Virus record (IMG/VR): IMGVR_UViG_3300016471_001002
Location: 96,001 to 160,000 of that record
Source of the DNA: a virus
Taxonomy: Duplodnaviria > Caudoviricetes
Strand: one strand, 5' to 3'
Length of the DNA stretch: 64,000 bases
The notes beneath the pieces are model-generated. The model was not told the origin of the DNA and searched no databases. It saw only the letters and a list, made by a program, of their open reading frames with translations. This document shows, in pieces, positions 18,505-33,784 of this stretch. Within the stretch, counting starts at the first letter, position 1. Each line of letters opens with the position of its first letter. The translations under genes and the position numbers were made by a program.

Positions 18505-18855
18505 GTGAATACATTTATGAAAGTAGAACCCTTAAATAAAGTCGCGATTACTCTTTTTATAATTGCAAAAATCTTTGGATTAATTGGCGTTAGCATGGGA
18601 TTCATGGGATCAAAAACGCATACAATCGGAGGATATCTTCTTTTCTTTGCAATAATTTCTATTTTTGGATCCATAGGATGCGCATTGTTTCAAACGGCGA
18701 AAGATAAAAAGAAGTTTTCCAAAGAAGACGAAGAGAATGCAAAGCTTAACTCATTTATAAGAGTAAAATCGACTTTAGAACAAGAAATTAAAGATCTTGA
18801 AGAACGTAGAATGGCCCTTGAAAATTTTTTGATTAAAAAAGGAAAAATGCTATGA
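18505..18855 (+). CDS. Two-TM membrane protein with C-terminal coiled coil
   Basis: Two hydrophobic segments then a charged helix. Confidence 0.6.
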   Translation: MNTFMKVEPLNKVAITLFIIAKIFGLIGVSMGFMGSKTHTIGGYLLFFAIISIFGSIGCALFQTAKDKKKFSKEDEENAKLNSFIRVKSTLEQEIKDLEERRMALENFLIKKGKML

Positions 18856-19844
18856 TTAAGTTTGCAGATGTAATTTTAGACCTACAACAAGGTGATAGCG
18901 GAAAAGGAAAAATTTCGAACGCATTGGTTCAGACTGGCGAATATACACATTCAGTTAGATACAACGGATCTAATAATGCTGGGCATACGGTTTATGTTGA
19001 AGGCAAAAAAATTGTTACGCATAGCATTCCTGCCGGCGTTCTTCATGGTGTAAAAAGCATCATTGGCCCTGGTTGCGTTCTTAATATAGATCATTTCTTT
19101 GATGAAATGGATATGCTTTATGATAAAGGAATTGATCCGGATGATTTAGTTTTTATTTCAAAAAATACTCATATCATTACTAATAAGCATCTTGAAGAAG
19201 ATCAACAAGACGTTTCAATCGGAACAACAAAACGAGGCAACGGACCTGCATATAGAGACAAGTACGCAAGAAAAGGAAAACGTGCTGAAGATTTTCATGA
19301 ATTACAACCTTATTTAATTGATGTTTATGAAGAATTTCATGAAAAACAAGAATGCAGCATCCTCTTTGAAGGAGCGCAAGGATTTTATTTAGACATAGAC
19401 TGGGGTGATTATCCCTATGTGACTTCTTCTCATTGTACGGTTGGATCTGCAGTTATGAATGGAGTTCCACCACAAAAGATTAGAAGAATTTATGGAGCAG
19501 CAAAAATTTATGAGACTTATGTTGGTTCAAAGAAGTTTGAACCGAAAGATCCAGTTTTTGAAAAGATTAGGCAACTAGGTAATGAGTTTGGTGCAACCAC
19601 CAATAGGCCGCGGCAGTGTAATTGGTTGAATATTGATAATCTAGTTAAAGCAGTAAAAGTCAATGGTGTGACAGATCTTGTTATATCGAAGATGGATATT
19701 TTAAGAGAAATCCGAGCATGGAACATGTATTATAAAGGAAGAAAACTTTCTTTCTCTTCTGAGTGGGCAATCAAAGATTTTATCACGACTCAAGTTGGAA
19801 AAGATGTTATTATACATTGGAGTGATAATCCAGAAGCCATATGA
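18852..19844 (+). CDS. purA: Adenylosuccinate synthetase, short form
   Basis: QQGDSGKGK, NNAGHT, IGTTKRGNGPAY, FEGAQG..LDIDWGDYPYVTSS, EFGATTNRPR, ISKMD. Confidence 0.93.
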   Translation: MIKFADVILDLQQGDSGKGKISNALVQTGEYTHSVRYNGSNNAGHTVYVEGKKIVTHSIPAGVLHGVKSIIGPGCVLNIDHFFDEMDMLYDKGIDPDDLVFISKNTHIITNKHLEEDQQDVSIGTTKRGNGPAYRDKYARKGKRAEDFHELQPYLIDVYEEFHEKQECSILFEGAQGFYLDIDWGDYPYVTSSHCTVGSAVMNGVPPQKIRRIYGAAKIYETYVGSKKFEPKDPVFEKIRQLGNEFGATTNRPRQCNWLNIDNLVKAVKVNGVTDLVISKMDILREIRAWNMYYKGRKLSFSSEWAIKDFITTQVGKDVIIHWSDNPEAI

Positions 19845-20244: not shown

Positions 20245-22563
20245 ATGAATTCATCTTCGCATTTAAAAAAATTTTTTGCTTTAGCCATTTGCGCAATAAT
20301 TTCATGCGTAAGCGAAACAAAAGAGACAACTACTGATGTAGTTTTTTCTGATGACATAAGCGATTCTTCGCAGGGGGGCAACGAACCTAAAGAACCTGAA
20401 TCCTGCAAAGAAGAAGAAAAACGAACTTGTCATGTTGCGCTTGGTGAACATGAAGGTGTTCTTAGTTGCTTCGTTGGAGTTCAAACTTGTGTAGATGGTG
20501 AATGGTCTGACTGTTCAGACGGCGAAGATGTCAAAAAAATTCCAAATGATGATGGCAAACCTTTATCGCTAACCTCTGAAAAAGTTTGCACTGATAATCC
20601 CTGCGATCCTCGTTGCAGTAAGTGGGTAGAAGATGGGAAGTGGAAGGCAGACGGTTCTATCTGCAAATGGCCGTGGAATTGGTCTAGCACTCCAGCGGAT
20701 AGTATCGATAAGGCGAACAAGGGAGGCGCAGCCAAAGAACCTTGCACACATGGTTCGCAATGCCACCAGAACCAGAAGTGTCAAGATCCAGCTCAAGGAA
20801 GTTGCTCTCATGACATCTGCACCAAAGGTGCAGGTTTAATCAAGGGTTGTGAGACCAAGTGTGTTGACAAGATCTGTGACGAGAAGCCTCAGTGCTGCGA
20901 GAAGAAGTATACAGGTACTTGTGAAGTCGAACCTTGCTTGACCTATCAAAAGGGGTTAACTAAAGATTGCGATCCAAATGTCAAGAAGACCTGTGATTGG
21001 GACAAGACGTGTTGCCCTTATACTCAGATCGAAACCTGTAGTTATTGGGGAATCATTGGATATAAACAGGTTTGCGAATGGATCGAAACTTACAAGTGTG
21101 GCTGGCGTAATTACTATTTCTGCGGATGGAGATGGAGAGAAGTATACACATGTGGTTGGCGTTGGAGAGAAATTTATAAATGTGGCTGGAGATGGCGTGA
21201 GTTCTACGTCTGCGGGTGGCGGTGGAGAGAAATATACGTTTGCGGATGGAGATGGAGAGAAGTATACGTCTGTGGCTGGCGACAGACCTATGTTTGCGGG
21301 TGGAATTATTGTTGTAACTTCTTCTGGTGCGAATGGTGCTACACTTGCTGGTGGGATTACCGGTACGAGTGCTGGTGGGAACAAGTATATGTCTATGAGT
21401 GTTGGTGGGAACAGATCTACGTATATGAATGCTGGTGGGAGCTTCGATATGTGTACGAGTGTTGGTGGGAACAGATCTATGTTTATGAGTGCTGGTGGGA
21501 GCAGCAATACGTGTATGAATGTTGGTGGGAAGAGCGTTACGAGTGCTGGTGGGAACTGACACAAAAGTGTTGGGATGAGCCTGAGTACGGTTGGATCTAT
21601 TATTCCTGCGAGAAGAGTTACGAGGGTGAGTGGACCCAAAAGTGCGTAGATCAATACAAGGTTTATAATCCTGGAGCTTGTCCCATGAGTTGGAAGGGAG
21701 ATTGGGATGCCACCTGTATCAATGCGGTCCACGATACATGTCACAACTATTGCGATGGAGTCAAGAAGGGAGCCGGTGATTGTGTAGAATGGGAGGCTCC
21801 AAACTTCGATGACAAGTGTGGAGACTTTGAACTCGGGGTTGGCCTCACCTGTCAATCAGGTAACACGCCGATCGTCCCAATCTGCAACACTGGGTCCAAA
21901 GAAGCACCGAAAGGTATTCCGATCGCAATCATGCCGAAGGGTTCAGGTTATTTTGGAACAGAACCAACATCGCTTCCGGGTGCGAAGTACTGCTACACCG
22001 ATGAAGCTATTCCGGCCGGTGAGTGTCGCAACGTGAAGAGCTGTAATGTGGTCGACGGAGACGAGGTCATGGTCAACCCGTCCACGAACGCCAGCTACAA
22101 CAAGGCTGAGTGCTTCAAGGGTGACAACTGGGGATTCTTCTATAATGCGGCCTGTGGATATCCACCAAAATGTCCAGGGGGTTATCTAGATACCACCAAA
22201 GTGGAATCTTATGAAACTACTTGTGAATCTGGCGAGACACCAGTCTGGGGTTTCTTGTCTTGGGATTCAACAACACCGCCTGGCACAGAAGTTTCATTCC
22301 GCGTGAGGACAGCGGGAACGAAAGCAGATCTTTCTTCTGCAACTTGGTATTCTGTGTCGACCAAATCGACGAATGCATCTCCTGATTGTTTGGCCAGCGG
22401 ACCGTCACCATGTCCGGTTGACCTCTACAACGTGCTTGGAAAGATTCAAGCTCAGAAGAAGTTCCTGGAGTTGGAGGTCAGTATCAAGGTCGACGCTAAC
22501 AAGAAGAACACACCGGTTCTAGAAAAATGGGAGATCAGCTATTCCTGTAAGGAGGAACAGTGA
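20245..22563 (+). CDS. Secreted/lipoprotein Cys- and Trp-rich protein with mirror-symmetric repeat insert
   Basis: Lipobox-like IISC; Cys-rich domains; CGWRWRExY and CWWEQxYVYE repeats; C-terminal SWDSTTPPGTEVSFRVRTA beta domain. Confidence 0.8.
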   Translation: MNSSSHLKKFFALAICAIISCVSETKETTTDVVFSDDISDSSQGGNEPKEPESCKEEEKRTCHVALGEHEGVLSCFVGVQTCVDGEWSDCSDGEDVKKIPNDDGKPLSLTSEKVCTDNPCDPRCSKWVEDGKWKADGSICKWPWNWSSTPADSIDKANKGGAAKEPCTHGSQCHQNQKCQDPAQGSCSHDICTKGAGLIKGCETKCVDKICDEKPQCCEKKYTGTCEVEPCLTYQKGLTKDCDPNVKKTCDWDKTCCPYTQIETCSYWGIIGYKQVCEWIETYKCGWRNYYFCGWRWREVYTCGWRWREIYKCGWRWREFYVCGWRWREIYVCGWRWREVYVCGWRQTYVCGWNYCCNFFWCEWCYTCWWDYRYECWWEQVYVYECWWEQIYVYECWWELRYVYECWWEQIYVYECWWEQQYVYECWWEERYECWWELTQKCWDEPEYGWIYYSCEKSYEGEWTQKCVDQYKVYNPGACPMSWKGDWDATCINAVHDTCHNYCDGVKKGAGDCVEWEAPNFDDKCGDFELGVGLTCQSGNTPIVPICNTGSKEAPKGIPIAIMPKGSGYFGTEPTSLPGAKYCYTDEAIPAGECRNVKSCNVVDGDEVMVNPSTNASYNKAECFKGDNWGFFYNAACGYPPKCPGGYLDTTKVESYETTCESGETPVWGFLSWDSTTPPGTEVSFRVRTAGTKADLSSATWYSVSTKSTNASPDCLASGPSPCPVDLYNVLGKIQAQKKFLELEVSIKVDANKKNTPVLEKWEISYSCKEEQ

Positions 22564-22941
22564 TCATCGAGAACGCTTAAGTTCTTCTTTGATTAACTCG
22601 CGAAGAACGCCTCGAAGAACTTTTTCTTCGAGGTTGGCATCAATAGCAGATACGACGTATTTGTTTTTTCTCAAGCTAGAATTCAAATTAAATATGTCCA
22701 TCCCAGCTCCACCCACGTATGCGACCACATTATTGAGTTGAGCTATTAAATCGTCGAGAACCTTCTTGTCTTGATCATCGACTTGACCATCACCAGTTAC
22801 GTCAGCGTTTTGGCTCTTTTGAATTGCGCTAATAACTTTACCGATGCCAACGACAGGTTCATCTAACTGTTTTTTTATTTTGGCAAGAGCCACGTGAGTT
22901 TTTGCTGCGCCAAGCTCATTTATTCTAGACGGTTTTTTCAT
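22564..22941 (-). CDS. Hypothetical protein with EF-hand/dockerin-like loop
   Basis: NADVTGDGQVDDQD; ends LRELIKEELKR; ATGA overlap with upstream gene. Confidence 0.55.
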   Translation of the reverse strand: MKKPSRINELGAAKTHVALAKIKKQLDEPVVGIGKVISAIQKSQNADVTGDGQVDDQDKKVLDDLIAQLNNVVAYVGGAGMDIFNLNSSLRKNKYVVSAIDANLEEKVLRGVLRELIKEELKRSR

Positions 22942-23573
22942 TTCTTTTTCTTCTTTTTGCCACGTGCTTTTTTGATTTGATTCCATTGAGCGGCGTCGAC
23001 TTTTCTTGCGGGACCGCCTGCAAGCACGCTATTGACTCTGGCCATTGCCCACGCATGTTGAGAAGCCCCGGGTCTATGTCCCGTTCTCCATGCTGCTAGA
23101 CCTTTATTATAGATTGCTCGCAAGGCGCTCATCGGCGCGCCAGACTTTTCTGCCTTGTTTTTCAGAGCTTTTGTGACGTTGTTTCCTTTTTTCTTCTCTT
23201 CGAGGACGGCCTCCGCGATAAATTCTTTTAGGACGTCTAAGTCGACCGCCAAATCTAGATCTTCTTCTAACAAGTCTTCATTTTCGATTAATGATTCTCC
23301 GAACATGTCTTTAACTTTCTTGTTCCATTTGGAAGGTTTTGTTTTTATTGGCTCACCAGTCTTTGGGTCTTTGTCTGTGGCAAAAGGTCGATAAGCTGAT
23401 GGATCATCAGTGTCTTTCTTTGCGCGCGCTCTTATTTCTTTTGCTCTCTTTTCCTTTTCAGGAGAACCTTTTAGATAAGAAGGATTAACCTTGCTTTTTT
23501 TCTCTTCTTCTCCTAAAATTGATTCAATTTCTTCTAAGATTATTTCGTATAATTTTTGTTCTGTCTCAAGCAT
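22938..23573 (-). CDS. Conserved viral protein (DUF5824-like C-terminal domain)
   Basis: LRAIYNKGLAAWRTGHRPGASQHAWAMARVNS motif recalled from large DNA viruses. Confidence 0.55.
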   Translation of the reverse strand: MLETEQKLYEIILEEIESILGEEEKKSKVNPSYLKGSPEKEKRAKEIRARAKKDTDDPSAYRPFATDKDPKTGEPIKTKPSKWNKKVKDMFGESLIENEDLLEEDLDLAVDLDVLKEFIAEAVLEEKKKGNNVTKALKNKAEKSGAPMSALRAIYNKGLAAWRTGHRPGASQHAWAMARVNSVLAGGPARKVDAAQWNQIKKARGKKKKKK

Positions 23574-23943: not shown

Positions 23944-24891
23944 ATGTTATCGTTTGAGGCACTTTCCTGTGATCCTTTGCGATTAATTAAGCAAAAATTT
24001 GCAAAATCTCGCGTCTTTATACCACGTGTCATCGAAACGTTGGAAGGCGTCTTCTCAAGAGGCGGCTATGTGTCAGGAGGATCTGCTGCGATCGTTGGCA
24101 GATGGTTGTTTTCTGAATTGAGTTATGGTACTTTGCCAGAAGAAGGTCCAAGATTTAAAAATGATGATCCTCAAAACCGTGTAGAGGAATACCTCATTTT
24201 GCCATCTTTTAGAATCCCGAAGGATGCAGAAGATAGGCTTAAAAATCGTTTTTGGAAATCAGGGGCTGGAGATATTGACTTTTATTTTAAAAATGATTCA
24301 GATGCATCTGATGTCATCCAATTCCTCAACATGGAAGTGAAGAGGTATAAAGTCTCCAACTTGTATCCGTCAGGTGATGCTCCGACTTTGGCTGGATGGG
24401 GACGAGAATATTATTTTGGTAATGCCCTCGTACAAGCAATCACGAAAATTACAGGTGATCCGTGTCAAATACTTGAATCTTTTGACATTGTCAATGCGCA
24501 GTGTTATCTAGACAAGAGTGGATTTTACTACACAAATCGTTGGTTAGATTGCGAAAAGAGGGGCGAGCTAGAGATTTTTAGGGGCGATAAGGACAACCTA
24601 TTATGGAGAGTCTCAAAATGGGCCGTACGACACAACTTAAGAGTAACCAGCGATTCTCAAAAGATTCTATCACATGCAGCCGTCAATCTTGCTGAAAAGA
24701 TTCAATTAGGAGATGGTCCTGTGATGTGGAATCGACCGGTCGACATGAAACATTTACGTGGAAAGGTTAAAGAATTAATTTGGAGATGGGATGCAAGCAA
24801 TATTCTATTGGCATCTCTTATTTTAGATTCTTATGATCAACTTGATCTATTAGGGTTAATTTCTGAAAAGAGCAAGGAGAATGATGCGTAA
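23944..24891 (+). CDS. Pol-beta superfamily nucleotidyltransferase-like protein
   Basis: GGYVSGGS..., GDIDFYF (DxD), ESFDIVNAQ. Confidence 0.6.
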   Translation: MLSFEALSCDPLRLIKQKFAKSRVFIPRVIETLEGVFSRGGYVSGGSAAIVGRWLFSELSYGTLPEEGPRFKNDDPQNRVEEYLILPSFRIPKDAEDRLKNRFWKSGAGDIDFYFKNDSDASDVIQFLNMEVKRYKVSNLYPSGDAPTLAGWGREYYFGNALVQAITKITGDPCQILESFDIVNAQCYLDKSGFYYTNRWLDCEKRGELEIFRGDKDNLLWRVSKWAVRHNLRVTSDSQKILSHAAVNLAEKIQLGDGPVMWNRPVDMKHLRGKVKELIWRWDASNILLASLILDSYDQLDLLGLISEKSKENDA

Positions 24892-25270
24892 TGTCATTGG
24901 AAAGAAAAAGACCAAAGCTATCTCGAAAGATGTTCAAAGATTTAAAGTAGGAGATTTGGTAAAGATAGTTGAAGATCCAAATAGTTTTGTGATCGGTGAG
25001 GGTCTCATTGACAGAATGGGTCTCATCGTAGAGTATGATTCAGAAAAAAACATTTATAGCGTTTTATTAGAAAACGGAAACAAATTTAGGATTTTGGATT
25101 TTATGTTGAAAAATGTAAAAAATATGAAAAAGCAAAAGAAACAGAAAAAGTTGGACGAAAGCGATTACACAAAAACGATTACGCACTGTCCAACTTGCGG
25201 AGTTGATCTAAATGGACCTGATTTTTGCAAATCGATAAATTGTGCTTGCGCTCCTAAAATTACGTGTTAA
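24881..25270 (+). CDS. SH3/KOW-like protein with Cys-rich C-terminus
   Basis: FKVGDLVKI, MGLIVE; CPTC...CKSINC. Confidence 0.55.
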   Translation: MMRNVIGKKKTKAISKDVQRFKVGDLVKIVEDPNSFVIGEGLIDRMGLIVEYDSEKNIYSVLLENGNKFRILDFMLKNVKNMKKQKKQKKLDESDYTKTITHCPTCGVDLNGPDFCKSINCACAPKITC

Positions 25271-25279
25271 TTATGGGAG

Positions 25280-25546
25280 ATGCAATCAAGCTCTTCTTTA
25301 GAGAAAATATTTAAATGCGGACAGTTGATCACTACAAATTTTGAAGGTGATTACAGGTTAACGTATTGTAGAGTACCTCTAGAGAAAACCATTCCAAATA
25401 ATACTCGATTCTACTGTGGAGACATAGGTCTTATCGTTGAAACGTTAGATGTACCAGACTTATTTTATACGTCTGGATTCGCGATGATTTTAGTTCCACA
25501 AGGAAGAGGGTGGGTCCCTTTTGAGTGGTTAAAGTCGTTGAGTTAA
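25280..25546 (+). CDS. Small SH3/KOW-like protein
   Basis: CGQLI, DIGLIVE, ILVPQGRGW. Confidence 0.6.
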   Translation: MQSSSSLEKIFKCGQLITTNFEGDYRLTYCRVPLEKTIPNNTRFYCGDIGLIVETLDVPDLFYTSGFAMILVPQGRGWVPFEWLKSLS

Positions 25547-25547
25547 T

Positions 25548-25781
25548 ATGTCGCCTGGGGATTTAGTACAAATTACATTAAGAGGAGTATGTTCCGATAA
25601 GTTTATAGGAATATTATTATCAATTTCTCTGGAGTCTCCCCACATTCCAAGGTATGATTCTCAGCAAAGTCGTCCTGGACCGATTTTTAATTTGAAAGTT
25701 TTGAAAATTGATGGAGAAATATGGGATTCTTGGATCGATCAAAATGATATTGTAGAAACTTTATTAAAAAATGAATTATGA
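25548..25781 (+). CDS. Small SH3/KOW-like protein
   Basis: MSPGDLVQ, IGILL. Confidence 0.6.
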   Translation: MSPGDLVQITLRGVCSDKFIGILLSISLESPHIPRYDSQQSRPGPIFNLKVLKIDGEIWDSWIDQNDIVETLLKNEL

Positions 25782-25790
25782 TTGATCAAA

Positions 25791-26018
25791 ATGATGAAGA
25801 CCGGTGATCTTATCATCGTTATTTCTCACGAATGGGAAAAATCCCAACACGGTCGGCGAGGGTATTCTTCATATCCAAGAGTCCGTGGGTTTCATAAGTC
25901 AATCTACGTAGTACCAGACACGATCGGAATCATACTAGAAAAACGGAATGATTACTACAGGATAGCCTTCGACTCTAGAGAAGTTTGGATGAACATGGAC
26001 AAGGTGAAAAAGCTATAG
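25791..26018 (+). CDS. Small SH3/KOW-like protein
   Basis: KTGDLII, TIGIILE. Confidence 0.6.
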   Translation: MMKTGDLIIVISHEWEKSQHGRRGYSSYPRVRGFHKSIYVVPDTIGIILEKRNDYYRIAFDSREVWMNMDKVKKL

Positions 26019-26034
26019 GATCTCCGGTGGTGGT

Positions 26035-26277
26035 ATGTCGTCGTCTCGTAGAAAAAACGTTGGTGATCTTGTGGTTCCAATCGGTACTTGGGACATTCTT
26101 CTCTTCGATGAAAATGCCGAACTTGGCTACACGATCCACTGGAAACCTGAACACGTGGCTCTCGTCATCGGTATGAAGACCCTCAACGATACCCAAGGAA
26201 GAACTAGGTTAATCGAGGTCCTCACCCCCAACGGTGCCGGATGGTGTTACCTATCGGAGGCTCAGAAGGTAAGATGA
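26035..26277 (+). CDS. Small SH3/KOW-like protein
   Basis: VGDLVV, EVLTPNGAGW. Confidence 0.6.
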   Translation: MSSSRRKNVGDLVVPIGTWDILLFDENAELGYTIHWKPEHVALVIGMKTLNDTQGRTRLIEVLTPNGAGWCYLSEAQKVR

Positions 26278-26477
26278 ACCCCGGTGACCTCGTTAGAAAA
26301 ATCGATTGGAACGGTGAGTTGAATCCCCGGTTGTTAGGGATTCTTCTCGAGGTGAAGATCGATAAAAAGTTGTTGAAGAGCCCCTTTGGAGTTCCGTGGA
26401 TTTATAAAGTGGCATGGAACGATGGTATTATCAAGGAACACGAGATGGGTACCCTCCGCAGGGTTTCAGTCAGGTGA
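26274..26477 (+). CDS. Small SH3/KOW-like protein
   Basis: MNPGDLVR, LGILLE; ATG overlaps upstream stop. Confidence 0.6.
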   Translation: MNPGDLVRKIDWNGELNPRLLGILLEVKIDKKLLKSPFGVPWIYKVAWNDGIIKEHEMGTLRRVSVR

Positions 26478-26480
26478 AAC

Positions 26481-26699
26481 ATGGAAATCACTTACCACGG
26501 GCACAACACCATAGAACTTAATCCTGGTGACCTAATCCGTTACCAGCTGGTTTCTGGTGTTTGGAACTACATGGGTACATTCATCGATGTTCTTCCACCC
26601 CTTCCTCACCGCGGAAACGTAAGATGGATTCGAGTCTTAACTCAGGACGGTTTGCAGAAGTTAAACACGGCCACCATTTTCAGGATGGAAAAGCAATGA
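26481..26699 (+). CDS. Small SH3/KOW-like protein
   Basis: NPGDLIR, RVLTQDG. Confidence 0.6.
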   Translation: MEITYHGHNTIELNPGDLIRYQLVSGVWNYMGTFIDVLPPLPHRGNVRWIRVLTQDGLQKLNTATIFRMEKQ

Positions 26700-26700
26700 G

Positions 26701-26735
26701 TGCAAAACCCGTCTTTCCTGTGGTATACTGACCCT
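26701..26735 (+). promoter_or_regulatory. Promoter TGCAAA-N17-TATACT-N6-ATG
   Basis: Conserved geometry, extended -10. Confidence 0.8.
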
Positions 26736-26945
26736 ATGGATCTGAAGCCCGGTGACCTGGTTCGGCACAAGATCAACCGCGATTGGGTGGGTGTGGTGTT
26801 GGGACTCGCAGTGGACCCGAATTCTCGTAGGAAATTTACGAAGTACACCGCCTACCAGTTGAACTCCTACCGTGTTCTTCGCCTGGGATCTGAATCGACC
26901 CTCTTCGCTAGGTTTCACATCTCGTACTTGGAGGTCATTGGGTGA
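26736..26945 (+). CDS. Small SH3/KOW-like protein
   Basis: LKPGDLVR, VGVVLG, LEVI. Confidence 0.6.
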   Translation: MDLKPGDLVRHKINRDWVGVVLGLAVDPNSRRKFTKYTAYQLNSYRVLRLGSESTLFARFHISYLEVIG

Positions 26946-27145
26946 TCAAACCGGGCGATCTGATTCGATTTACTTGGGCTCATCACCAGACGGCCATGGG
27001 TGTTGTTCTATCCATCCATCCACCGCCCAATTATCACAGTGGAATTGATTACACGATAGAGATCTTAGAGCCCGACGGCCGTAAGTTCGTTTATGATGTT
27101 TTTCGGGGTGGTGACCAACCGGAGGTCCTCAGTGAAGCCGGGTGA
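26942..27145 (+). CDS. Small SH3/KOW-like protein
   Basis: KPGDLIR, MGVVLS. Confidence 0.6.
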   Translation: MIKPGDLIRFTWAHHQTAMGVVLSIHPPPNYHSGIDYTIEILEPDGRKFVYDVFRGGDQPEVLSEAG

Positions 27146-27338
27146 TCTCATTCGTGGGAAGCAAGGCTTCTGGAAGGGCACCCCTCTGGTTGGTATCATC
27201 ATCAAGGAATCTGACCGTAGCAACACCTGGGGAGATGACAGGCACCAATGGTGGACGGTCCTGTGTGAGGGAGGTGTGGTTGTGGACGAGATTGAATCAC
27301 TGATGGAGGTCGTCGATGAAAACTCTTCAGGCAGGTGA
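27132..27338 (+). CDS. Small SH3/KOW-like protein
   Basis: GTG start, KPGDLIR, VGIIIK, MEVV. Confidence 0.6.
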   Translation: MKPGDLIRGKQGFWKGTPLVGIIIKESDRSNTWGDDRHQWWTVLCEGGVVVDEIESLMEVVDENSSGR

Positions 27339-27522
27339 CCTTGTTCAGGTGGAACCGCATGCCAGTTGCAACGTGGATTGGGGTTCGGCCAAGAGGCATT
27401 TTAACACTGGTAAACAGCCCACCTTGGGAGTCCTGATCGAGAACAAACTCGAGTGGTACCATGTGATGATGAACGATGGTAGATCTGGGTGGATTTGGTT
27501 CCGTGAGGTGAAGCCGTTGTGA
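27316..27522 (+). CDS. Small SH3/KOW-like protein
   Basis: AGDLVQ, LGVLIE, GRSGW. Confidence 0.6.
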   Translation: MKTLQAGDLVQVEPHASCNVDWGSAKRHFNTGKQPTLGVLIENKLEWYHVMMNDGRSGWIWFREVKPL

Positions 27523-27734
27523 AGCCGGGTGATTACGTTTCTGTGACTCGTTATCACAATGGTTTCCGCATGGATGACCCACCTATAACCGGTCTCCTGG
27601 TGGAACGTTGCCCATTGATGCCCTTCGATTCCTTTAAAAGATCTTTCATAATTAAGATACTGGAAACAACAGGGGAATTAAGGGAAATATTTGTGGACAA
27701 TCGTGATGTCACGAAGGTGCTAATTGGAGCCTGA
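27519..27734 (+). CDS. Small SH3/KOW-like protein
   Basis: KPGDYVS, TGLLVE. Confidence 0.6.
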   Translation: MKPGDYVSVTRYHNGFRMDDPPITGLLVERCPLMPFDSFKRSFIIKILETTGELREIFVDNRDVTKVLIGA

Positions 27735-28005
27735 GTACAAGGTCGGTGACCTGGTCCGACTCAATGTGGTCAAGAAACCCTTGGGATTGACGGTCCTCGT
27801 GGACATCAGCGGTGATGTTTTTGCGATGGAGATGAACCGTGATGGTTTGATTCCCAAGATCGTGGGACGGTTTTTCAAGGGTGATGTCGGTGTTGTTCTC
27901 CAGATCGATGATGAAACCTTCATGACTCGGATTATCACCAAGTCAGGTTTGATAGGTTGGGGAAACACTTGGGATTTTATCCCGGTGCAAAACACCGGGG
28001 GATGA
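27724..28005 (+). CDS. Small SH3/KOW-like protein
   Basis: YKVGDLVR, DVGVVLQ, KSGLIGW. Confidence 0.6.
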   Translation: MEPEYKVGDLVRLNVVKKPLGLTVLVDISGDVFAMEMNRDGLIPKIVGRFFKGDVGVVLQIDDETFMTRIITKSGLIGWGNTWDFIPVQNTGG

Positions 28006-28020
28006 TGATATTATAGAACC
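27986..28020 (+). promoter_or_regulatory. Promoter TGCAAA-N17-TATTAT-N6-ATG
   Basis: Conserved geometry, extended -10. Confidence 0.75.
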
Positions 28021-28218
28021 ATGAAGCTCGGTGACCTTCTCCTGGTGAATCCTGGAACTCATGTTCCGCCTGGTGGCCGATATTCCCAGGGTGTTGTTCT
28101 AACAAACCCTACCTCTCTGGGTTTTCTCACCATCGCGTGGCGGGATGGTAAGATCACAAGGGAATTTTTGGGTAATGTTTCCAAGTACTACACGGTGATC
28201 AACAGTGAAACCCGGTAA
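28021..28218 (+). CDS. Small SH3/KOW-like protein (close paralogue of 30280..30486)
   Basis: KLGDLLL, VPPGGRYSQGVVL. Confidence 0.62.
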   Translation: MKLGDLLLVNPGTHVPPGGRYSQGVVLTNPTSLGFLTIAWRDGKITREFLGNVSKYYTVINSETR

Positions 28219-28393
28219 ACTCGTTGTGTGGAGAGCTAGATTTCAAATGGATCTTCCTGGTGATATTGGGATCATCCTGGAACACATCCCCCATGAATCC
28301 CGTGGAAATGATCCGTTCCCCCACTGGAAGGTATTGTTTCCGGAACGCGGAGTTCTTCACTGCCGAGAATCGGATCTCCAGGAGGTTGAGTGA
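28205..28393 (+). CDS. Small SH3/KOW-like protein
   Basis: KPGKLVV, DIGIILE, DLQEV. Confidence 0.6.
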   Translation: MKPGKLVVWRARFQMDLPGDIGIILEHIPHESRGNDPFPHWKVLFPERGVLHCRESDLQEVE

Positions 28394-28578
28394 GAGTTGG
28401 TGATCTCGTTCTCTACACCAATCCCCAGAGGATGATCTCCCCCACACTCGGGATAATCACCGAGGAACACCACAACATCTCAATCGATCACCGTTTCTTC
28501 TCCGTTCTACTCCACAATGGTAGGAAACAAATCATCTCTGATCACTACCTCTCCCTCCCCGGTGAAAATCCACCGTAG
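28390..28578 (+). CDS. Small SH3/KOW-like protein
   Basis: RVGDLVL, LGIITE. Confidence 0.6.
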   Translation: MRVGDLVLYTNPQRMISPTLGIITEEHHNISIDHRFFSVLLHNGRKQIISDHYLSLPGENPP

Positions 28579-28597
28579 GATGATTTAGGATAACATC
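28563..28597 (+). promoter_or_regulatory. Promoter TGAAAA-N17-TAGGAT-N6-ATG
   Basis: Conserved geometry. Confidence 0.6.
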
Positions 28598-28813
28598 ATG
28601 AAGAACAAAAGAGGGCATCACTACTTCATTTCCTCCACCAAATCAGGAAAGATTCTTGCCCAAAGCGGGGAGAAAGGTGATGTGGAGAAGTTCTCCGAAA
28701 CATGGATTCGAGAATCTCCCCATTATGATCCAGGTGATCCAATCATCATAGAGAAGGTTACCGTGGATTGGGATGGTTTCAAAACCTCAAAAAAGATCAT
28801 CAAGGAATATTGA
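28598..28813 (+). CDS. Hypothetical protein
   Basis: 71-aa ORF behind promoter. Confidence 0.55.
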   Translation: MKNKRGHHYFISSTKSGKILAQSGEKGDVEKFSETWIRESPHYDPGDPIIIEKVTVDWDGFKTSKKIIKEY

Positions 28814-28816
28814 ACA

Positions 28817-29068
28817 ATGCCGCTCTATAGAGTAACATTCCATACAGAAATCCTCATCGATGCCCGTGATGAACGTGAGGCCGAGAGGATTGGGGATAGA
28901 AACCTAGAATCCGAGGTTAGGAACTGTGGATCCGAGGTGTATCGGATTGAGGAATTGAATTCCGTGGATCAACTCCGAAGGGCAGAGAGGGGTTCCTTAC
29001 CTTGGAGAGCAACGGAGAGAAGAGGGGAACCTGAGCTACTGGTGGAAGAGATTCTGGGAGGAAAGTGA
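28817..29068 (+). CDS. Hypothetical protein
   Basis: 83-aa ORF in chain. Confidence 0.6.
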   Translation: MPLYRVTFHTEILIDARDEREAERIGDRNLESEVRNCGSEVYRIEELNSVDQLRRAERGSLPWRATERRGEPELLVEEILGGK

Positions 29069-29071
29069 ACC

Positions 29072-29437
29072 GTGGGTACAAACTATTATCTCCACCAAAA
29101 ATCAACCTCGATGTGTGAACACTGTGGGCATGACCCCGGTGCCAAGGTGTTACACATAGGAAAATCCTCCTATGGTTGGTGTTTCTCCCTTCACATCATT
29201 CCTGAGGAAGGTATCAATTCCTTGGATGATTGGAAGTTGGCCTGGGATAAACCTGACACCAAGATCCTCAATGAATATGATGAGGTTGTCCGGCCCGAGG
29301 ACATGTTGAAGATCATCACCACTCGTGGCCCTGGAAAATGGTCACCTGAGGGAATGGATCCACAGAGACATGATGGGGATCACTGTGTTGGGCATGGAAA
29401 TGAATCATATGATCTTATCATTGGGGAATTTAGTTGA
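29072..29437 (+). CDS. Conserved phage hypothetical protein
   Basis: MGTNYY...LHIGKSSYGWCF pattern recalled from diverse phages. Confidence 0.65.
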   Translation: MGTNYYLHQKSTSMCEHCGHDPGAKVLHIGKSSYGWCFSLHIIPEEGINSLDDWKLAWDKPDTKILNEYDEVVRPEDMLKIITTRGPGKWSPEGMDPQRHDGDHCVGHGNESYDLIIGEFS

Positions 29438-29438
29438 G

Positions 29439-29473
29439 TGCAAAACACCGTGAGGGGATGATATACTGGTAAC
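29439..29473 (+). promoter_or_regulatory. Promoter TGCAAA-N17-TATACT-N6-ATG
   Basis: Conserved geometry, extended -10. Confidence 0.8.
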
Positions 29474-29686
29474 ATGGAGATCATCCGGGTACATGAACTT
29501 CAGGTTGGAAAACTGTACCGTTGGAATGAGTACATGGGTGATCAAGATGAGATCTTCATGGTGGTTGGAAACCCCATCGATGGAGTATCTCAGGATGTTC
29601 ACTATGTGGAAGTAATTTCCAGTAAGTTTTCCCACAATAAAATGATGGTTTTCTCCTCCGATCGATTCAACGAGGTGATGGAATGA
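29474..29686 (+). CDS. Small SH3/KOW-like protein
   Basis: LQVGKLYR, FMVVG, VEVI. Confidence 0.55.
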   Translation: MEIIRVHELQVGKLYRWNEYMGDQDEIFMVVGNPIDGVSQDVHYVEVISSKFSHNKMMVFSSDRFNEVME

Positions 29687-29910
29687 AGCCCAGTTCCGGT
29701 ATGGTTCCAGGTGTTCTGGTTAGAAACCGTTGCTATATGCATTTTTATCTCACCGCGGAAAGTGTTAACCGTGGAATTCCGAAGGAAGGAATTCCTATGG
29801 ATTCCATCAGTACTGTTCTCACCCCGCCTAACGGAACCTGGATCAAGGTTCTGTGTGATGGTAAGATCGGCTGGGTTAACTGGACCCTGTGGCTTGAGGT
29901 GATCCAGTGA
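29683..29910 (+). CDS. Small SH3/KOW-like protein
   Basis: PGVLVR, KVLCDGKIGW, LEVI. Confidence 0.6.
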   Translation: MKPSSGMVPGVLVRNRCYMHFYLTAESVNRGIPKEGIPMDSISTVLTPPNGTWIKVLCDGKIGWVNWTLWLEVIQ

Positions 29911-30098
29911 AACCAGGTGATCTGGTTAGGTTAACTCGTTTCGATGAGATACCTTTCATTGGTGTTTATCTCGGCCCATCCAATAGATTTGATGAGAAGA
30001 GACAACCTTATGAGGGGAGGTTCGTGTTGAACACCGGAATCATTAAAGATGTTGATTTCGGAAACCATTTGGTTTGGAACTTCGAGGTGATGAAGTGA
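29907..30098 (+). CDS. Small SH3/KOW-like protein
   Basis: KPGDLVR, IGVYLG, FEVM. Confidence 0.6.
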   Translation: MKPGDLVRLTRFDEIPFIGVYLGPSNRFDEKRQPYEGRFVLNTGIIKDVDFGNHLVWNFEVMK

Positions 30099-30283
30099 AA
30101 CTATCTCTCGGTGATATGGTTTTCGTGAGGGATTCTCTCTTTGTTCCTCCAACAAAACCGTTAATCATCATTGATATCTACAAGGTAGGGCTTTCTTCGT
30201 ATCCCTACTTCGTGGTTGTGGATCCAAACACCGGTGAAAAGTTTACTTACCAGAAACACGATCTTTCGGAGGATCCTCTGTGA
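30095..30283 (+). CDS. Small SH3/KOW-like protein
   Basis: GTG start, LGDMVFV, LIIID. Confidence 0.55.
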   Translation: MKLSLGDMVFVRDSLFVPPTKPLIIIDIYKVGLSSYPYFVVVDPNTGEKFTYQKHDLSEDPL

Positions 30284-30486
30284 GTTTTTGTGTTGGTGAT
30301 TTACTCCTCGTGGCACCGGGTTCATATGTTCCACCGGGTGGAAGATATTCCCAGGGGATTGTTTTATCTGATCCTGATCCAGGTTTCCGTACCGTGTATG
30401 TGGCCTGGTATGATGGTAAGATCACCCAGGAATTGGTGAGTAACCTTTTGAAATCCTACGTGAGGATCACCAATGATTCTAGGTGA
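30280..30486 (+). CDS. Small SH3/KOW-like protein (close paralogue of 28021..28218)
   Basis: VGDLLL, VPPGGRYSQGIVL. Confidence 0.62.
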   Translation: MSFCVGDLLLVAPGSYVPPGGRYSQGIVLSDPDPGFRTVYVAWYDGKITQELVSNLLKSYVRITNDSR

Positions 30487-30697
30487 TCTTCTCCAGGCAA
30501 AGAGTAAAATCCAGGTTGGTGTGGTTCGGATCTACAGGGAGCCCCAATGTGATTCATGGGAAACACACACGATAAAGGGTGAAACATTCCTTCTATTGGA
30601 GGAACACAAGAATCAGTGGGGCCAGGATGTTTGTAAGGTTCTATTTCCCTGGGGAATCCGTTGGGTTTACCGGTTGGATGTGGAGGTGGTGGAATGA
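30473..30697 (+). CDS. Small SH3/KOW-like protein
   Basis: ILGDLLQ, CKVLFPWGIRW, VEVV. Confidence 0.6.
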   Translation: MILGDLLQAKSKIQVGVVRIYREPQCDSWETHTIKGETFLLLEEHKNQWGQDVCKVLFPWGIRWVYRLDVEVVE

Positions 30698-30885
30698 AAA
30701 GGGGAACCTTGGTTCGATTCAACGTTTCCATCTATTCTGATTGGGGTTTGGGGATTCTCCTCGGTGAGAAACCGATTGTGGATAGAGAAGGTAGGAATCA
30801 CCGTGGATTTTATGATGTTTTAACCCAGTGTGGAGTTAAACTAGTTTCCAGTGAATACTTTGAGAGGTTGAGTTGGGATGTTTAG
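30694..30885 (+). CDS. Small SH3/KOW-like protein
   Basis: KRGTLVR, LGILLG, DVLTQCG. Confidence 0.6.
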   Translation: MKRGTLVRFNVSIYSDWGLGILLGEKPIVDREGRNHRGFYDVLTQCGVKLVSSEYFERLSWDV

Positions 30886-31111
30886 CATTGGTGATTTGGT
30901 GAGGATGAAGAAAGTTTATAGTTCCACACCACTTTTTTCCACCTGGGGAAACAAGGAAGGTGGTGATAAACCCATTGGAACCATTCAACCAGGTGAGATC
31001 GGTGTTGTTCTTGAAACAACCCAACCTCGAGGTGGAAACGGGGCACGGATCATGGTATCCGGTGGGAAGATCGGTTGGGTTAATCTTATTTTCCTGGAGA
31101 ATGAAACATGA
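30878..31111 (+). CDS. Small SH3/KOW-like protein
   Basis: SIGDLVR, EIGVVLE, GKIGWV. Confidence 0.62.
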   Translation: MFSIGDLVRMKKVYSSTPLFSTWGNKEGGDKPIGTIQPGEIGVVLETTQPRGGNGARIMVSGGKIGWVNLIFLENET

Positions 31112-31308
31112 AACCTGGGGATCTTCTCAAATTCATCCATATTGTTGATCTAATGGATCCGATTTACCGTGAATCCGGGTGGAAGTTTGGGATCTACCTG
31201 GAGCACAAAAACATTAAGTTCAGTGGTGAAACCATAAAGGTTATCGATTCCGACGGGAAGATAAACCACTATCCTCAGGATTCATATCATTTCCAGGTGG
31301 TGGAATGA
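31108..31308 (+). CDS. Small SH3/KOW-like protein
   Basis: KPGDLLK, FGIYLE, FQVV. Confidence 0.6.
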   Translation: MKPGDLLKFIHIVDLMDPIYRESGWKFGIYLEHKNIKFSGETIKVIDSDGKINHYPQDSYHFQVVE

Positions 31309-31478
31309 TTCCATCTCCAGGTGATTTGGTAAAAGTGAAAGGCTACAGAACAGATTCACTCGGGTTGATTATCGATATTCAAGGTGGAACTGGTTTGTAC
31401 CGGGTTTGGTTGCTCGGCCAACCTGATCTCTATAAGGTTTTCCGGTATTCCAAGGAGATGTTGGAGGTTGTGGGGTGA
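31305..31478 (+). CDS. Small SH3/KOW-like protein (57 aa, absent from ORF track)
   Basis: Translated by hand: MIPSPGDLVKVKGYRTDSLGLIIDIQGGTGLYRVWLLGQPDLYKVFRYSKEMLEVVG; overlaps both neighbours. Confidence 0.6.
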   Translation: MIPSPGDLVKVKGYRTDSLGLIIDIQGGTGLYRVWLLGQPDLYKVFRYSKEMLEVVG

Positions 31479-31660
31479 GAAACAATGATATCCCCAGTAT
31501 CAATCAGGTGGTACCTGGATCCCTGGTTATCCACCGTTACACCCCTGAGATCGGTGTGGTTCTCCGCGTTTCCTGGAACATGGTTGAGGTTCTACTTGGA
31601 AACTCCACCGTGAAGTGGGAGATGAATGGATTCAGAAGTACCTATAGGAATCTCCAGTGA
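31475..31660 (+). CDS. Small SH3/KOW-like protein
   Basis: VPGSLVI, EIGVVLR. Confidence 0.58.
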   Translation: MRNNDIPSINQVVPGSLVIHRYTPEIGVVLRVSWNMVEVLLGNSTVKWEMNGFRSTYRNLQ

Positions 31661-31884
31661 GAATCGGTGATATGGTTCAACTCAGCCCCTCCCACAAGAG
31701 TTACGTTAACATGTATGAGGAGGATGATCTGAACCGAATAGAGAACGGTGAAAGGTTCTACCGGAATGATATAGGATTGGTTCTGGAGAGCCAAGGGAAC
31801 GGGGAATACATCCACTTCAAGGTTTTAACTCCCCGCGGGGCAATGGGGTGGATCCATAACTTCCACCTGGAGTTGGTGAGATGA
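31657..31884 (+). CDS. Small SH3/KOW-like protein
   Basis: RIGDMVQ, DIGLVLE, KVLTPRGAMGW, LELVR. Confidence 0.62.
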   Translation: MRIGDMVQLSPSHKSYVNMYEEDDLNRIENGERFYRNDIGLVLESQGNGEYIHFKVLTPRGAMGWIHNFHLELVR

Positions 31885-32084
31885 AACCCGGAGATTTGGT
31901 TTTAATCTCCGCGGATTTTCTGGAACCACATGAACCCCGTGTGGGGATATTCTGGAGTGATAAGGTTCCACTGGATGAATGGGGAGATCAGGTTGCAGGT
32001 GAGTGTGATTGTATCGTTTTCTGGAACGAAGATTTCATTCCTTTCATATGGGAAAACCTAACACTCCTCTCGGAGGTACCATGA
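31881..32084 (+). CDS. Small SH3/KOW-like protein
   Basis: KPGDLVL, VGIFW. Confidence 0.6.
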   Translation: MKPGDLVLISADFLEPHEPRVGIFWSDKVPLDEWGDQVAGECDCIVFWNEDFIPFIWENLTLLSEVP

Positions 32085-32272
32085 AACGGGGTGATCTGGT
32101 AAAAATCACCCATCAAAAAACAGGAGAGGGTGAGGTGGTGGTGTGTTACAAACCGGAGGTAATCAGGTGTTTCAATCACTATGGTTCTTATCATGGAATC
32201 CAGATGATCAATTCCAACGGAACCATTGTTTGTTACCCGGTGGATCGTTGGAGTTTTGAGGTGATCCGGTGA
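32081..32272 (+). CDS. Small SH3/KOW-like protein
   Basis: KRGDLVK, FEVIR. Confidence 0.6.
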   Translation: MKRGDLVKITHQKTGEGEVVVCYKPEVIRCFNHYGSYHGIQMINSNGTIVCYPVDRWSFEVIR

Positions 32273-32472
32273 GAGTTGGAGATCTAGTTCGTTTCCGAAC
32301 CGGGAGGAAACTAATCACCAGGGATATCACCTGGGATACAGGATTGATACTTGAGATATTCCTCGATGATTTTGATGGGGGAGATAAGTGCAAAATTCTG
32401 GATTCCAGTGGTAGAATTAAATGGATTCGTTCCCATGGAACCGAGGTATTGAACCACAATGAAACCTGGTGA
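32269..32472 (+). CDS. Small SH3/KOW-like protein
   Basis: RVGDLVR, TGLILE, KILDSSG. Confidence 0.62.
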   Translation: MRVGDLVRFRTGRKLITRDITWDTGLILEIFLDDFDGGDKCKILDSSGRIKWIRSHGTEVLNHNETW

Positions 32473-32707
32473 TATGGTTAGTGTGAAGGATGGTGATAAA
32501 GGTAACACCTACTGGTTATACCATCCTGAATCCCCAATTACCATTAACCTCATCCCCACCGATATTCGGTTTGGATTCTCAGATACCGGTTTGATATTGG
32601 AATCCCATGTGAACACTGGGATGTACCCTTACGCAACCTTCCTCAAGATTCTCACCCCTCGGGGAATCGGTTGGGCAAATGAGAATTGGGTGGAGGTTCT
32701 ACTGTGA
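32459..32707 (+). CDS. Small SH3/KOW-like protein
   Basis: KPGDMVS, DTGLILE, KILTPRGIGW. Confidence 0.62.
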   Translation: MKPGDMVSVKDGDKGNTYWLYHPESPITINLIPTDIRFGFSDTGLILESHVNTGMYPYATFLKILTPRGIGWANENWVEVLL

Positions 32708-32973
32708 AACCTGGATCACAAGTTCGTTTAATTCCTGAGTTGGAAGGTAACGAGGATTACAAGATCCTCTGGGATGATCCACCGGATTTCACTTCAATCT
32801 ACAGGAAGAACCACACCGGGAGGTTCCGTTACACCGAGGTTGGAATGGTTCTTGAACAAAGATATGTTTCCGATGATAACCTACCTCTTCACGTTCAAAC
32901 CACCTGGATCAAGGTTCTATGTTCCTCAGGAATCGGTTGGATTAAAAGATGTGATCTGGAGTTGGTGAGATGA
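32704..32973 (+). CDS. Small SH3/KOW-like protein
   Basis: KPGSQVR, EVGMVLE, KVLCSSGIGW, LELVR. Confidence 0.62.
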   Translation: MKPGSQVRLIPELEGNEDYKILWDDPPDFTSIYRKNHTGRFRYTEVGMVLEQRYVSDDNLPLHVQTTWIKVLCSSGIGWIKRCDLELVR

Positions 32974-33176
32974 AGATCGGAAATCTTATTCGAATCACTC
33001 GGTTCTTCAAGGATTGGAAGATCAACACCACCACCGGTGTTCTACTACATTTTTGCCCCGTGGAACCAATCAAGGATACCCATAAAAAATCTTTCAATAT
33101 TCGGATGTTGGAAACCAACGGGGAAATTCAGGATTTTATTCTGGTTCCGGAGGATGGGATTGAGGTGTTGGGGTGA
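32970..33176 (+). CDS. Small SH3/KOW-like protein
   Basis: KIGNLIR, TGVLL, IEVL. Confidence 0.6.
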   Translation: MKIGNLIRITRFFKDWKINTTTGVLLHFCPVEPIKDTHKKSFNIRMLETNGEIQDFILVPEDGIEVLG

Positions 33177-33370
33177 GAAAACCAGGTGATATGGTTCGAA
33201 TCTCCTCCAAAACCGATGGTGATATTGATGGAAAACTTGCCACCGTTATCGAGCATGTGGATGAGAACCTCCGTTCCGGGAGGATGTGTTACACCAAGGT
33301 TTTCCTCATGATTTCCGGGGTTCCTGTTTTTAGGTACCTCTGCCCGGATTCACTGGAGTTGGTGAGATGA
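33173..33370 (+). CDS. Small SH3/KOW-like protein
   Basis: KPGDMVR, ATVIE, LELVR. Confidence 0.6.
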   Translation: MRKPGDMVRISSKTDGDIDGKLATVIEHVDENLRSGRMCYTKVFLMISGVPVFRYLCPDSLELVR

Positions 33371-33594: not shown

Positions 33595-33784
33595 GTTGTG
33601 GATGGTGAGTGATACCGTTAGGGTAACCGTTGGAAACAAGGTTGCAACTTTCCGCCTATCCGGGCCGGGTTTGGTGGTGAAAATCCATGAGAACCGCGAT
33701 GAATACGGAGATTATTACACCGTGTTCTGGGGTGGAAAAACATCGGAACTATTCCGGGATAATTTTGTGGAGAGGATATCTTGA
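33575..33784 (+). CDS. Small SH3/KOW-like protein
   Basis: LGELW, GLVVK, YTVFWGG. Confidence 0.55.
   Translation: MKPNLGELWMVSDTVRVTVGNKVATFRLSGPGLVVKIHENRDEYGDYYTVFWGGKTSELFRDNFVERIS

Follow-up and report, generated by a model that had tools for sequence, protein, structure and literature searches.

A putative long disulfide-laddered, aromatic-zippered β-hairpin in a lipoprotein family shared by a large phage and Polyangiaceae-type bacteria

Designed Trpzip hairpins are 12-16 residues long and carry, at alternate positions on one face, cross-strand W-W pairs that stabilise the hairpin, and the bovine ultralong third heavy-chain complementarity-determining region (CDR-H3) has a stalk of ~20 residues per strand with no disulfide rungs, its disulfides lying in the folded knob. 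The θ-defensins form cystine ladders of three parallel disulfides (PMC6327110), β-hairpin antimicrobial peptides contain one to few disulfides (PMC13001179), and in TraA of Myxococcus Cys-rich tandem repeats have been proposed to act as a rigid stalk that presents a binding domain (PMC3325183). Here we describe a gene in a 64,000-nucleotide stretch of viral DNA (positions 96,001 to 160,000 of IMG/VR record IMGVR_UViG_3300016471_001002; hereafter the window), in which the open reading frame (ORF) at 20245..22563 (+) is uninterrupted and encodes a product of 772 residues with 70 Cys (the ladder protein, P0001). From sequence comparison and structure prediction it is likely that residues ~259-459 of this protein form a very long two-stranded, disulfide-laddered and W/Y-zippered hairpin rod on a lipid-anchored Cys-rich body.

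Like θ-defensins, protegrin, tachyplesin and gomesin, this segment is predicted to consist of two antiparallel strands with parallel cross-strand disulfides on one face. Those peptides, however, place one to three rungs in ~18 residues and are free, some with a cyclic backbone (PMC6327110; PMC13001179), whereas here 10 rungs (to ~18 in relatives) would be distributed over arms of 80-200 residues that are inserted in a lipoprotein of 770-1000 residues. Set against the θ-defensins, antiparallel strands with mirrored Cys are present but the small cyclised peptide is not, the ladder being a 166-200-residue insertion in a 772-residue protein. The cystine-ladder-like motif of green-alga HAP2 is likewise a disulfide-laddered insertion in a large extracellular protein, where it is a proposed interaction site, but it is a 37-residue loop with three disulfides of epidermal growth factor-like connectivity, no extended hairpin and no aromatic zipper (PMC6327110). 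TraA is built of sequential local modules and has a MYXO-CTERM anchor, whereas in the ladder protein two different arrays would pair and the anchor is an N-terminal lipobox; neither the TraA repeat model (TIGR04201) nor DUF4215 matched the ladder protein at E ≤ 1 in NCBIfam and Pfam, and DUF4215 was found only in a gene neighbouring the bacterial relatives. Compared with Trpzip, W-Y and Y-W pairs would recur ~22 times here, interleaved with cystines, an arrangement that is zipper-like without containing the Trpzip motif itself. A long, solvent-exposed two-stranded ribbon that projects a distal element is common to the ladder protein and bovine CDR-H3, but here the Cys are in the stalk and the tip is a clamped aromatic turn. 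The knob that the first-pass annotation of this DNA had placed at the end of the stalk is not there: the tip comprises a four-residue turn between C357 and C362 and one spare Cys pair. Covariation supports well, and structure prediction in part, the as yet unproven view that a cystine ladder and an aromatic zipper act together in this hairpin, which stands outside those peptide families and would extend a known principle to an unprecedented scale.

The ladder segment (residues 277-442; 21073-21570, on the + strand like all parts of the gene) contains Cys at residues 277, 285, 293, 303, 313, 323, 333, 343, 351, 356, 357, 362, 365, 368, 376, 386, 396, 406, 416, 426, 434 and 442, at spacings of 8,8,10,10,10,10,10,8,5,1,5,3,3,8,10,10,10,10,10,8,8. 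Ten pairs of these Cys have the constant sum i+j=719 (277/442, 285/434 ... 357/362) around the central turn NFFW (residues 358-361; 21316..21327), which is closed by C357-C362 and has alongside it C356 and C365, two spare tip Cys outside the sum-719 pairs. The mirrored Cys spacing around NFFW that had been noticed from the letters alone, with ten potential pairs and two spare Cys at the tip, is thus exact. The outgoing arm (residues 277-357; 21073..21315) is made of units of 8, 8, 10x5, 8 and 6 residues, with ten-residue units of the form CGWRWRExYx, and the return arm (residues 362-442; 21328..21570) of units of 6, 8, 10x5, 8 and 8 residues, with ten-residue units of the form CWWEQxYVYE. We confirmed that the former is basic (net charge +7) and the latter acidic (-13), as well as the proposed W/Y pairing on the Cys face: in register 719 this face holds 10 C-C, 13 W-Y, 9 Y-W and 4 E-Q pairs and no W-W pair, and 36% of the ladder segment is aromatic.

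In the DNA, each arm is a distinct tandem array with a period of 30 nt and 71-84% matches (outgoing 21121-21282, period 30/60 nt; return 21363-21531, period 30/60/90 nt), within which the longest exact repeats are 27 and 23 nt. Because Logan contigs from two further samples of the source study match the ladder DNA with 0 differences, one contig of 874 nt alone spanning 20926-21799, the ladder DNA of the window is no assembly artefact. ORFs on the opposite strand or in other frames within the ladder (20956-21855, 21053-21562 and 20978-21559) were rejected as genes and are by-products of the repeats. Since the ladder consists of two tandem arrays, the mirror exceeds chance only moderately when the window is taken alone; it is the comparative data that render it highly non-random.

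We tested the mirror across homologues by explicit arm-by-arm comparison of unit order. Two simpler statistics were discarded: a naive Cys-spacing palindrome scan fails on the window, upset by the two spare tip Cys, and a constant-sum statistic, computed on the whole protein against shuffled spacings, fails to tell periodic ladders from the null. Present in a subclade only, the ladder is inserted behind a conserved CCPY motif, with rungs per arm numbering essentially none (P0013), 4 (P0024), 8 (P0009, P0012), 12-14 (P0008, P0010) or 10-18 (the clade without a VWA domain). At least 14 distinct spacing patterns, over a range of 30-90% identity, have a return arm that is the exact mirror of the outgoing one. 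The pattern 6,8,10x5/6/7,8,8 occurs in the window, in P0002/P0003 and in L002, and the pattern 10,10,(12,10)n,12,8 in P0005 and P0185. Both arms of L003 read 10,10,12,10,12,10,12,10,10,8,8, and both arms of P0007, counted from the tip, read 6,12,10,12,10,12,10,12,12,10,12,12,10,10,8,8, an aperiodic order out of about 2.9 million arithmetically possible orders of its units. VWA-type relatives are mirrored as well, with 4,8x9,10,12,12,10 on both arms of P0008, 4,8,8,8,6,6,6,12 on both arms of P0009/P0012, 4,11,8x9,13 on both arms of P0010 and further patterns in P0011, P0023 and P0024. Since several of the mirrored patterns are aperiodic, the mirror is not a by-product of two regular arrays.

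The types of unit, and not only their lengths, correspond across the mirror. Outgoing CGWRYIYTYx always stands opposite return CWWExVYTYG, outgoing CGWRWIExYx stands opposite return CWWEQQYVYx, and two kinds of 12-residue unit also pair one-to-one in aperiodic order. Mutual information is higher between mirror partners than between shuffled partners, and the top-scoring pair (out6/ret4) is a direct cross-strand pair, either E-Q or Y-Y depending on the unit type, though mutual information cannot resolve single contacts where whole unit types co-vary. The spare tip Cys co-occur in homologues, which have both or neither, and aromatic tips are kept (FFW, WWS and WWG in the window's clade, GWGWWGW in the VWA-type relatives) in tip loops of 4-9 residues. 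Every spacing in the long-ladder clade is even, which would place all ladder Cys on one face of the strand pair, and of 61 full-length family representatives, 49 contain an even number of Cys downstream of the lipobox Cys (p = 2e-6), as expected if essentially all Cys are disulfide-bonded.

These correspondences bear on a quite different fold, a β-solenoid or stacked repeat of 10-residue units in which the mirror would arise incidentally from two tandem arrays whose ends are degenerate. Each arm is indeed a tandem repeat, and disulfide-braced β-helices exist, for example the beetle antifreeze protein with its 12-residue coils. The ladder, however, has one Cys per unit and no intra-coil pair, relatives mix units of 6, 8, 10 and 12 residues where a solenoid needs a constant coil, and the mirrored aperiodic orders, the co-variation of unit types and the joint changes of the arms (see below) would be left unexplained. 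Structure prediction moreover yields long paired strands rather than coils, and a solenoid or metal-binding fold, which the first-pass annotation had listed as evidence that would speak against a hairpin, was looked for in the family and structure searches and no such match appeared. We judge a solenoid to be extremely unlikely.

Close relatives reveal how the arms change. From residue 95 on, P0169 (L002) and P0001 are almost the same, yet P0169 has 7+7 instead of 5+5 ten-residue units, the difference being two separate 20-residue indels, one in each arm. In the window's own group, i.e. the six members of its 90% cluster and P0169, all 7 full-length sequences have matched arms (5+5, 6+6 or 7+7). 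Similarly, a single 22-residue block per arm distinguishes P0005 from P0185, and P0007 and P0200 differ at the tip (6 versus 10) on both arms alike. These comparisons suggest that rod length evolves by gain or loss of one unit on each arm. The proposal that the copy numbers of the two arms must have been kept matched therefore stands for close phage relatives, which gained and lost units jointly, but not for 13 assembled sequences with unequal arms that we consider below.

We next compared the ladder register with structure prediction. AlphaFold2 (AF2), supplied with an 86-sequence alignment of the full protein, gave a mean predicted local distance difference test score (pLDDT) of 77.7, with both body domains mostly >90, and predicted the strand pairs 328-357/362-391 (turn 358-361) and 259-285/434-459 at pLDDT 66-85. 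Both strand pairs are symmetric about 359.5, the register of the Cys sum 719, and the mirrored strands 259-285 and 434-459 include the base of the hairpin on its outgoing side (residues 259-276; 21019..21072) and its return side (residues 443-459; 21571..21621). The long antiparallel hairpin that had been expected of such a model was thus obtained, in register, at the tip and the base, while the middle is unconfident.

In the mechanism that we propose, the protein would fold oxidatively after Sec export and lipidation, and residues ~259-459 would become a single two-stranded antiparallel β-ribbon in which residues i and 719-i are partners. The lipobox, the 68 Cys of the mature protein and the DsbA-like gene of the bacterial loci suggest that it is exported to an oxidising compartment. 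Ten cross-strand disulfide rungs would lie on one face, C356-C365 would probably add a bond at the tip, and between rungs the Cys face would hold W-Y, W-Y, E-Q and Y-W pairs as a combined cystine and aromatic zipper. The opposite face would consist of Arg, Glu, Val and Trp, with outgoing Arg placed diagonally to return Glu and with Val and Trp over conserved Gly. At 3.3 Å per residue such a stiff rod would measure ~27 nm for the ladder and ~33 nm with its base, and ~70 nm in bacterial relatives with arms of ~200 residues. It would project from the globular body formed by the N- and C-terminal domains and end in the disulfide-clamped aromatic turn NFFW.

Several observations weigh against such a rod. 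AF2 run on a single sequence (residues 225-500) performed poorly (pLDDT 41), and in the alignment-based model residues 301-329 and 392-434 have pLDDT <50 and short strands that are unmirrored; these low-confidence stretches are the positions of the homologue indels. The gene context gives function no support, as the phage copies sit among metabolic or unknown genes, and a ribbon with a wholly aromatic face may be unstable as a monomer. In a related arrangement the arms would pair between molecules, or hairpins would pack face to face, to give a domain-swapped or four-stranded dimeric rod or polymer in which the aromatic and cystine face is buried. A face that is almost all W, Y and cystine would be costly to expose over ~30 nm, antiparallel inter-chain pairing would equally require mirror symmetry, and the monomer AF2 model is unconfident in just the middle of the hairpin. 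Conversely, the tight four-residue turn with its conserved Cys-pair closure, together with the AF2 strand pairs at tip and base, favours an intramolecular hairpin, and designed Trp-zipper peptides, whose aromatics are laid out on one face in the same way, are monomers. We think such a dimer or polymer unlikely, and it elaborates the hairpin idea rather than contradicting it.

The remaining points against the rod concern the lengths of its arms. The long-ladder clade comprises 29 full-length assembled sequences, of which 13 have unequal arms (P0004, P0006, P0206 and ten P0005-like sequences, these ten belonging to a single cluster and being nearly identical in their flanks), with 6 versus 2 ten-residue units in P0004, 9 versus 8 in P0206 and an extra 10+12 on the outgoing arm of P0006. 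Some unequal forms were recovered on 2-4 contigs, and the arms are matched in only 3 of 13 P0005-like sequences, a fraction that by our estimate looks little better than chance pairing. If the unequal arms are real, strict arm matching is not required. The ladder might then be a slippage-prone contingency locus with genuinely unequal alleles, encoding a flexible adhesive or metal-binding coat with no defined hairpin, as the unequal sequences, their recurrence on several contigs and the few matched P0005-like arms would allow.

Unit counts in loci with near-perfect repeats rest on short-word contigs, however, and where the DNA was read, unequal forms occur only at loci with exact repeats of at least 56 nt (56-107 nt: 107 and 65 nt in L008, 67 nt at the P0006 locus and 56 nt at the P0208 locus), i.e. 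at or above common assembler word sizes, whereas the always-mirrored loci have exact repeats of 16-42 nt. Ten P0005-like sequences show 0 differences over 584 flanking residues, yet present 8 unit-count combinations, with at most 18 units on any arm and a maximum of 18+18 that is mirrored and found on several ~100 kb contigs. Relative to the mirrored P0208, P0004 carries 2 substitutions and has lost 120 nt in a single deletion flanked by direct repeats of 24 nt. In one 'Deltaproteobacteria' metagenome-assembled genome (MAG) the orthologous gene is split over two contigs (L009/L010) with both breaks inside ladder repeats, showing that short-read assembly fails in the ladder region. In all unequal sequences, finally, the tip-proximal and base-proximal patterns are still mirrored. 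Because of the long exact repeats, the identical flanks with varied counts, the P0004 deletion, the split MAG gene and the mirrored ends, we favour repeat collapse during assembly as the probable, though unsettled, source of most unequal arms. Homologues with unequal arms had been named in advance as evidence against a hairpin, and 13 assembled sequences are of this kind, though they look like repeat collapse. As mirrored patterns are in addition kept over deep divergence, a contingency locus encoding a coat without a defined hairpin appears very unlikely to us.

Outside the hairpin rod that we prefer, the protein begins with a predicted lipoprotein signal, comprising a KK n-region, a hydrophobic core and the lipobox I-I-S-C (residues 18-21, Cys21; 20245..20307). 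Lipobox-type motifs are kept across homologues (LVAC, LASC, LAAC, IASC and VISC), and this conservation supports the lipid-anchored Cys-rich body that had been proposed; the mature protein after the lipobox Cys contains 68 Cys. A disordered, acidic, Ser/Thr-rich low-complexity tether follows (residues 22-53; 20308..20403; AF2 pLDDT <50 at 22-48), which is the most variable stretch in the comparison of P0001 with P0169. The N-terminal Cys-rich body domain (residues 54-258; 20404..21018; AF2 pLDDT mostly 80-95) is family-conserved and has the CCPY motif at its end, and the C-terminal body (residues 460-772; 21622..22563, stop codon included; pLDDT mostly >90) consists of a Cys-rich middle domain and a β-sandwich that in homologues carries the precomputed annotation DUF8252/PF26780. 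A phage spanin (o-spanin or unimolecular) was considered and rejected: a lipobox is present, but the protein has 772 residues, a hydrophilic end (..YSCKEEQ), no embedded or adjacent partner gene and no PHROG match.

Homologues are numerous. A word-indexed search returned 19 clusters of relatives and an exhaustive phmmer search 771 representatives at E ≤ 1e-3, 107 of them at E ≤ 1e-30, with matches to residues 40-260 and 460-772. As PF26780 is precomputed on homologues at 55-80% identity, homology assigns the ladder protein to the DUF8252 (PF26780) family of Myxococcota-type lipoproteins; our Pfam search, in which the PF26780 model is probably missing, gave no direct match on P0001, nor one on P0002, for which PF26780 is precomputed. 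Pfam, NCBIfam, PHROGs and PADLOC gave no match on P0001, and neither tblastn against 50,697 phage records nor a sequence search of the PDB matched the ladder protein. An ESM Atlas feature search produced nothing usable, and Foldseek against the PDB and BFVD returned only matches at TM ≤ 0.15. For the body, VIA-align found generic jelly-roll matches only (best Z 8.9, Bdellovibrio Bd1399), and the AFDB matches are uncharacterised VWA proteins of the same family. No entry in the PDB, AFDB or BFVD resembles the hairpin, and a literature search for DUF8252 or a disulfide-ladder hairpin found nothing. The statement that no described phage protein has this design accordingly holds for the PDB, BFVD, PHROGs and the literature searched, but the family is shared with bacteria.

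Named family members come from MAGs of Polyangiaceae, Myxococcales and 'Deltaproteobacteria', and many relatives have a VWA domain, one a C-type lectin domain. The DUF8252 VWA lipoproteins of Myxococcales/Polyangiaceae MAGs are true homologues (30-42% identity over the N- and C-terminal domains) that share the lipobox and the insertion site after CCPY; they differ in their VWA domain, in K-rich units of 6, 8 and 12 residues and in a GWGWWGW tip loop. The nearest relatives (54-88% identity) lack VWA and occur in two settings, on low-GC viral contigs (31-41% guanine-cytosine content; L002, L003, L004, L014 and L015) and on high-GC bacterial contigs (62-67%). The bacterial loci (L016, L017 and L018) have a conserved chromosomal neighbourhood of three FG-GAP/ASPIC proteins, a DsbA-like thioredoxin and the ladder lipoprotein, then a DUF4215/PPC protein abutting or overlapping the end of the ladder gene, a trypsin-like protease and DUF3105, which may constitute an envelope module. 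Neither DsbA nor a homologue of the bacterial partner gene was found when searched for in the phage record. A tree of the non-ladder parts intermixes phage and bacterial copies, with 7 of 16 inner forks unsupported and the direction of transfer not resolved. Judged by these affinities, the phage gene belongs to a family of host envelope proteins that has passed between Polyangiaceae-type bacteria and large freshwater phages. The first-pass annotation had treated the product as a phage protein; it is not phage-specific, and belongs to a host-family gene common to Polyangiaceae-type bacteria. We also note that the gene immediately upstream of the ladder gene on the viral contig L004 (33% GC; positions 3280-5391) encodes a fibre-type protein of 703 residues in which collagen-like G-x-y repeats are combined with a globular C-terminal domain.

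Concerning function, the rod is probably a rigid, evolvable spacer that presents its aromatic tip to a membrane or glycan or sets the distance between body and membrane, since the aromatic, disulfide-clamped tip is the only far-end element that is conserved in kind. The ruler, receptor probe or decoy of the first-pass annotation are candidate roles. The phage copy is probably made in the envelope of the infected cell for surface remodelling, exclusion or as a decoy (e.g. by blocking adsorption) and not for the virion, a view based solely on the signal for export, on the Cys content and on the orthologues in bacteria. Were it instead a virion fibre or receptor-binding protein with the rod as its shaft, the position of the L004 gene directly downstream of a collagen-like fibre-type protein and the weak likeness of the jelly-roll body to phage tail and baseplate domains (Z 7-8) would be accounted for. 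The lipoprotein signal and the 68 mature Cys, however, point to Sec export and oxidative folding as opposed to cytoplasmic virion assembly, no PHROG matches the protein, synteny with structural genes is not conserved, and the bacterial orthologues are chromosomal envelope proteins, which together make a virion role quite improbable in our view.

A broader picture is possible, if somewhat doubtful, and we advance it tentatively. The ladder may represent an undescribed class of rod, a single two-stranded β-ribbon of 30-70 nm with a cross-strand disulfide every 6-12 residues and a Trp/Tyr zipper, whose length would change in quanta of ~3.3 nm (one unit per arm) by paired slippage under selection. 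It would serve as a length-polymorphic surface probe, exchanged by myxobacteria-like hosts and large phages, whose aromatic tip touches membrane or glycan, and the phage version may follow the host allele so as to imitate it, block it or assemble together with it. If the hairpin rod itself is correct, it would far exceed in length any other natural cystine ladder or aromatic-zipper hairpin, would add a new single-chain, stiff, nanometre-scale spacer to coiled coils, collagen, β-helices and Ig chains, and would offer a design template for rigid, length-programmable rods. The matched arms would be a clean natural case of length co-evolution in which two non-homologous repeat arrays read out physical contact. 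A shared and rapidly length-varying envelope protein would link large freshwater phages to Polyangiaceae-type hosts and give a handle on host assignment and on phage-host surface interaction, and the hairpin is a first structural idea for part of a 771-representative family that has so far been only a DUF.

The source record is a 211 kb virus (completeness estimate ~65%) that, because it carries a large terminase, a virion structural protein and homing endonucleases, is by gene content a large tailed phage. The ladder gene (47% GC in a window of 41%) has as neighbours a PurA/PurZ-like synthetase, a cupin, an HhH-GPD glycosylase and a DUF5824 protein, none of them a structural gene. The synthetase gene (18852-19844, +) encodes an adenylosuccinate-synthetase-like protein of 330 residues, shorter than the 416-position Pfam model (PF00709, E = 7e-80), that also matches phrog_1211, '2-aminooxy adenylosuccinate synthetase' (E = 1e-66). 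We take the latter match to denote the PurZ-type family, in which case adenine may be replaced by 2-aminoadenine in the phage DNA. The DUF5824 gene (22938-23573, -) is convergent with the ladder gene, and the C-terminal part of its product also matches the end of a PHROG annotated cytidyltransferase.

Elsewhere in the window, ~24891-34258 is a region of 9.4 kb without any ORF of at least 150 residues, while the rest is gene-dense. An ORF of 1741 residues (51491-56716, -), with no PHROG match and only a sub-threshold Pfam match, may encode a large structural or tail protein, as it adjoins an ORF of 609 residues and a 515-residue virion structural protein (phrog_1645). Finally, 39484-40455 (-) and 45366-46346 (-) encode a paralogous homing-endonuclease-like pair with matches to phrog_314 and phrog_22215.

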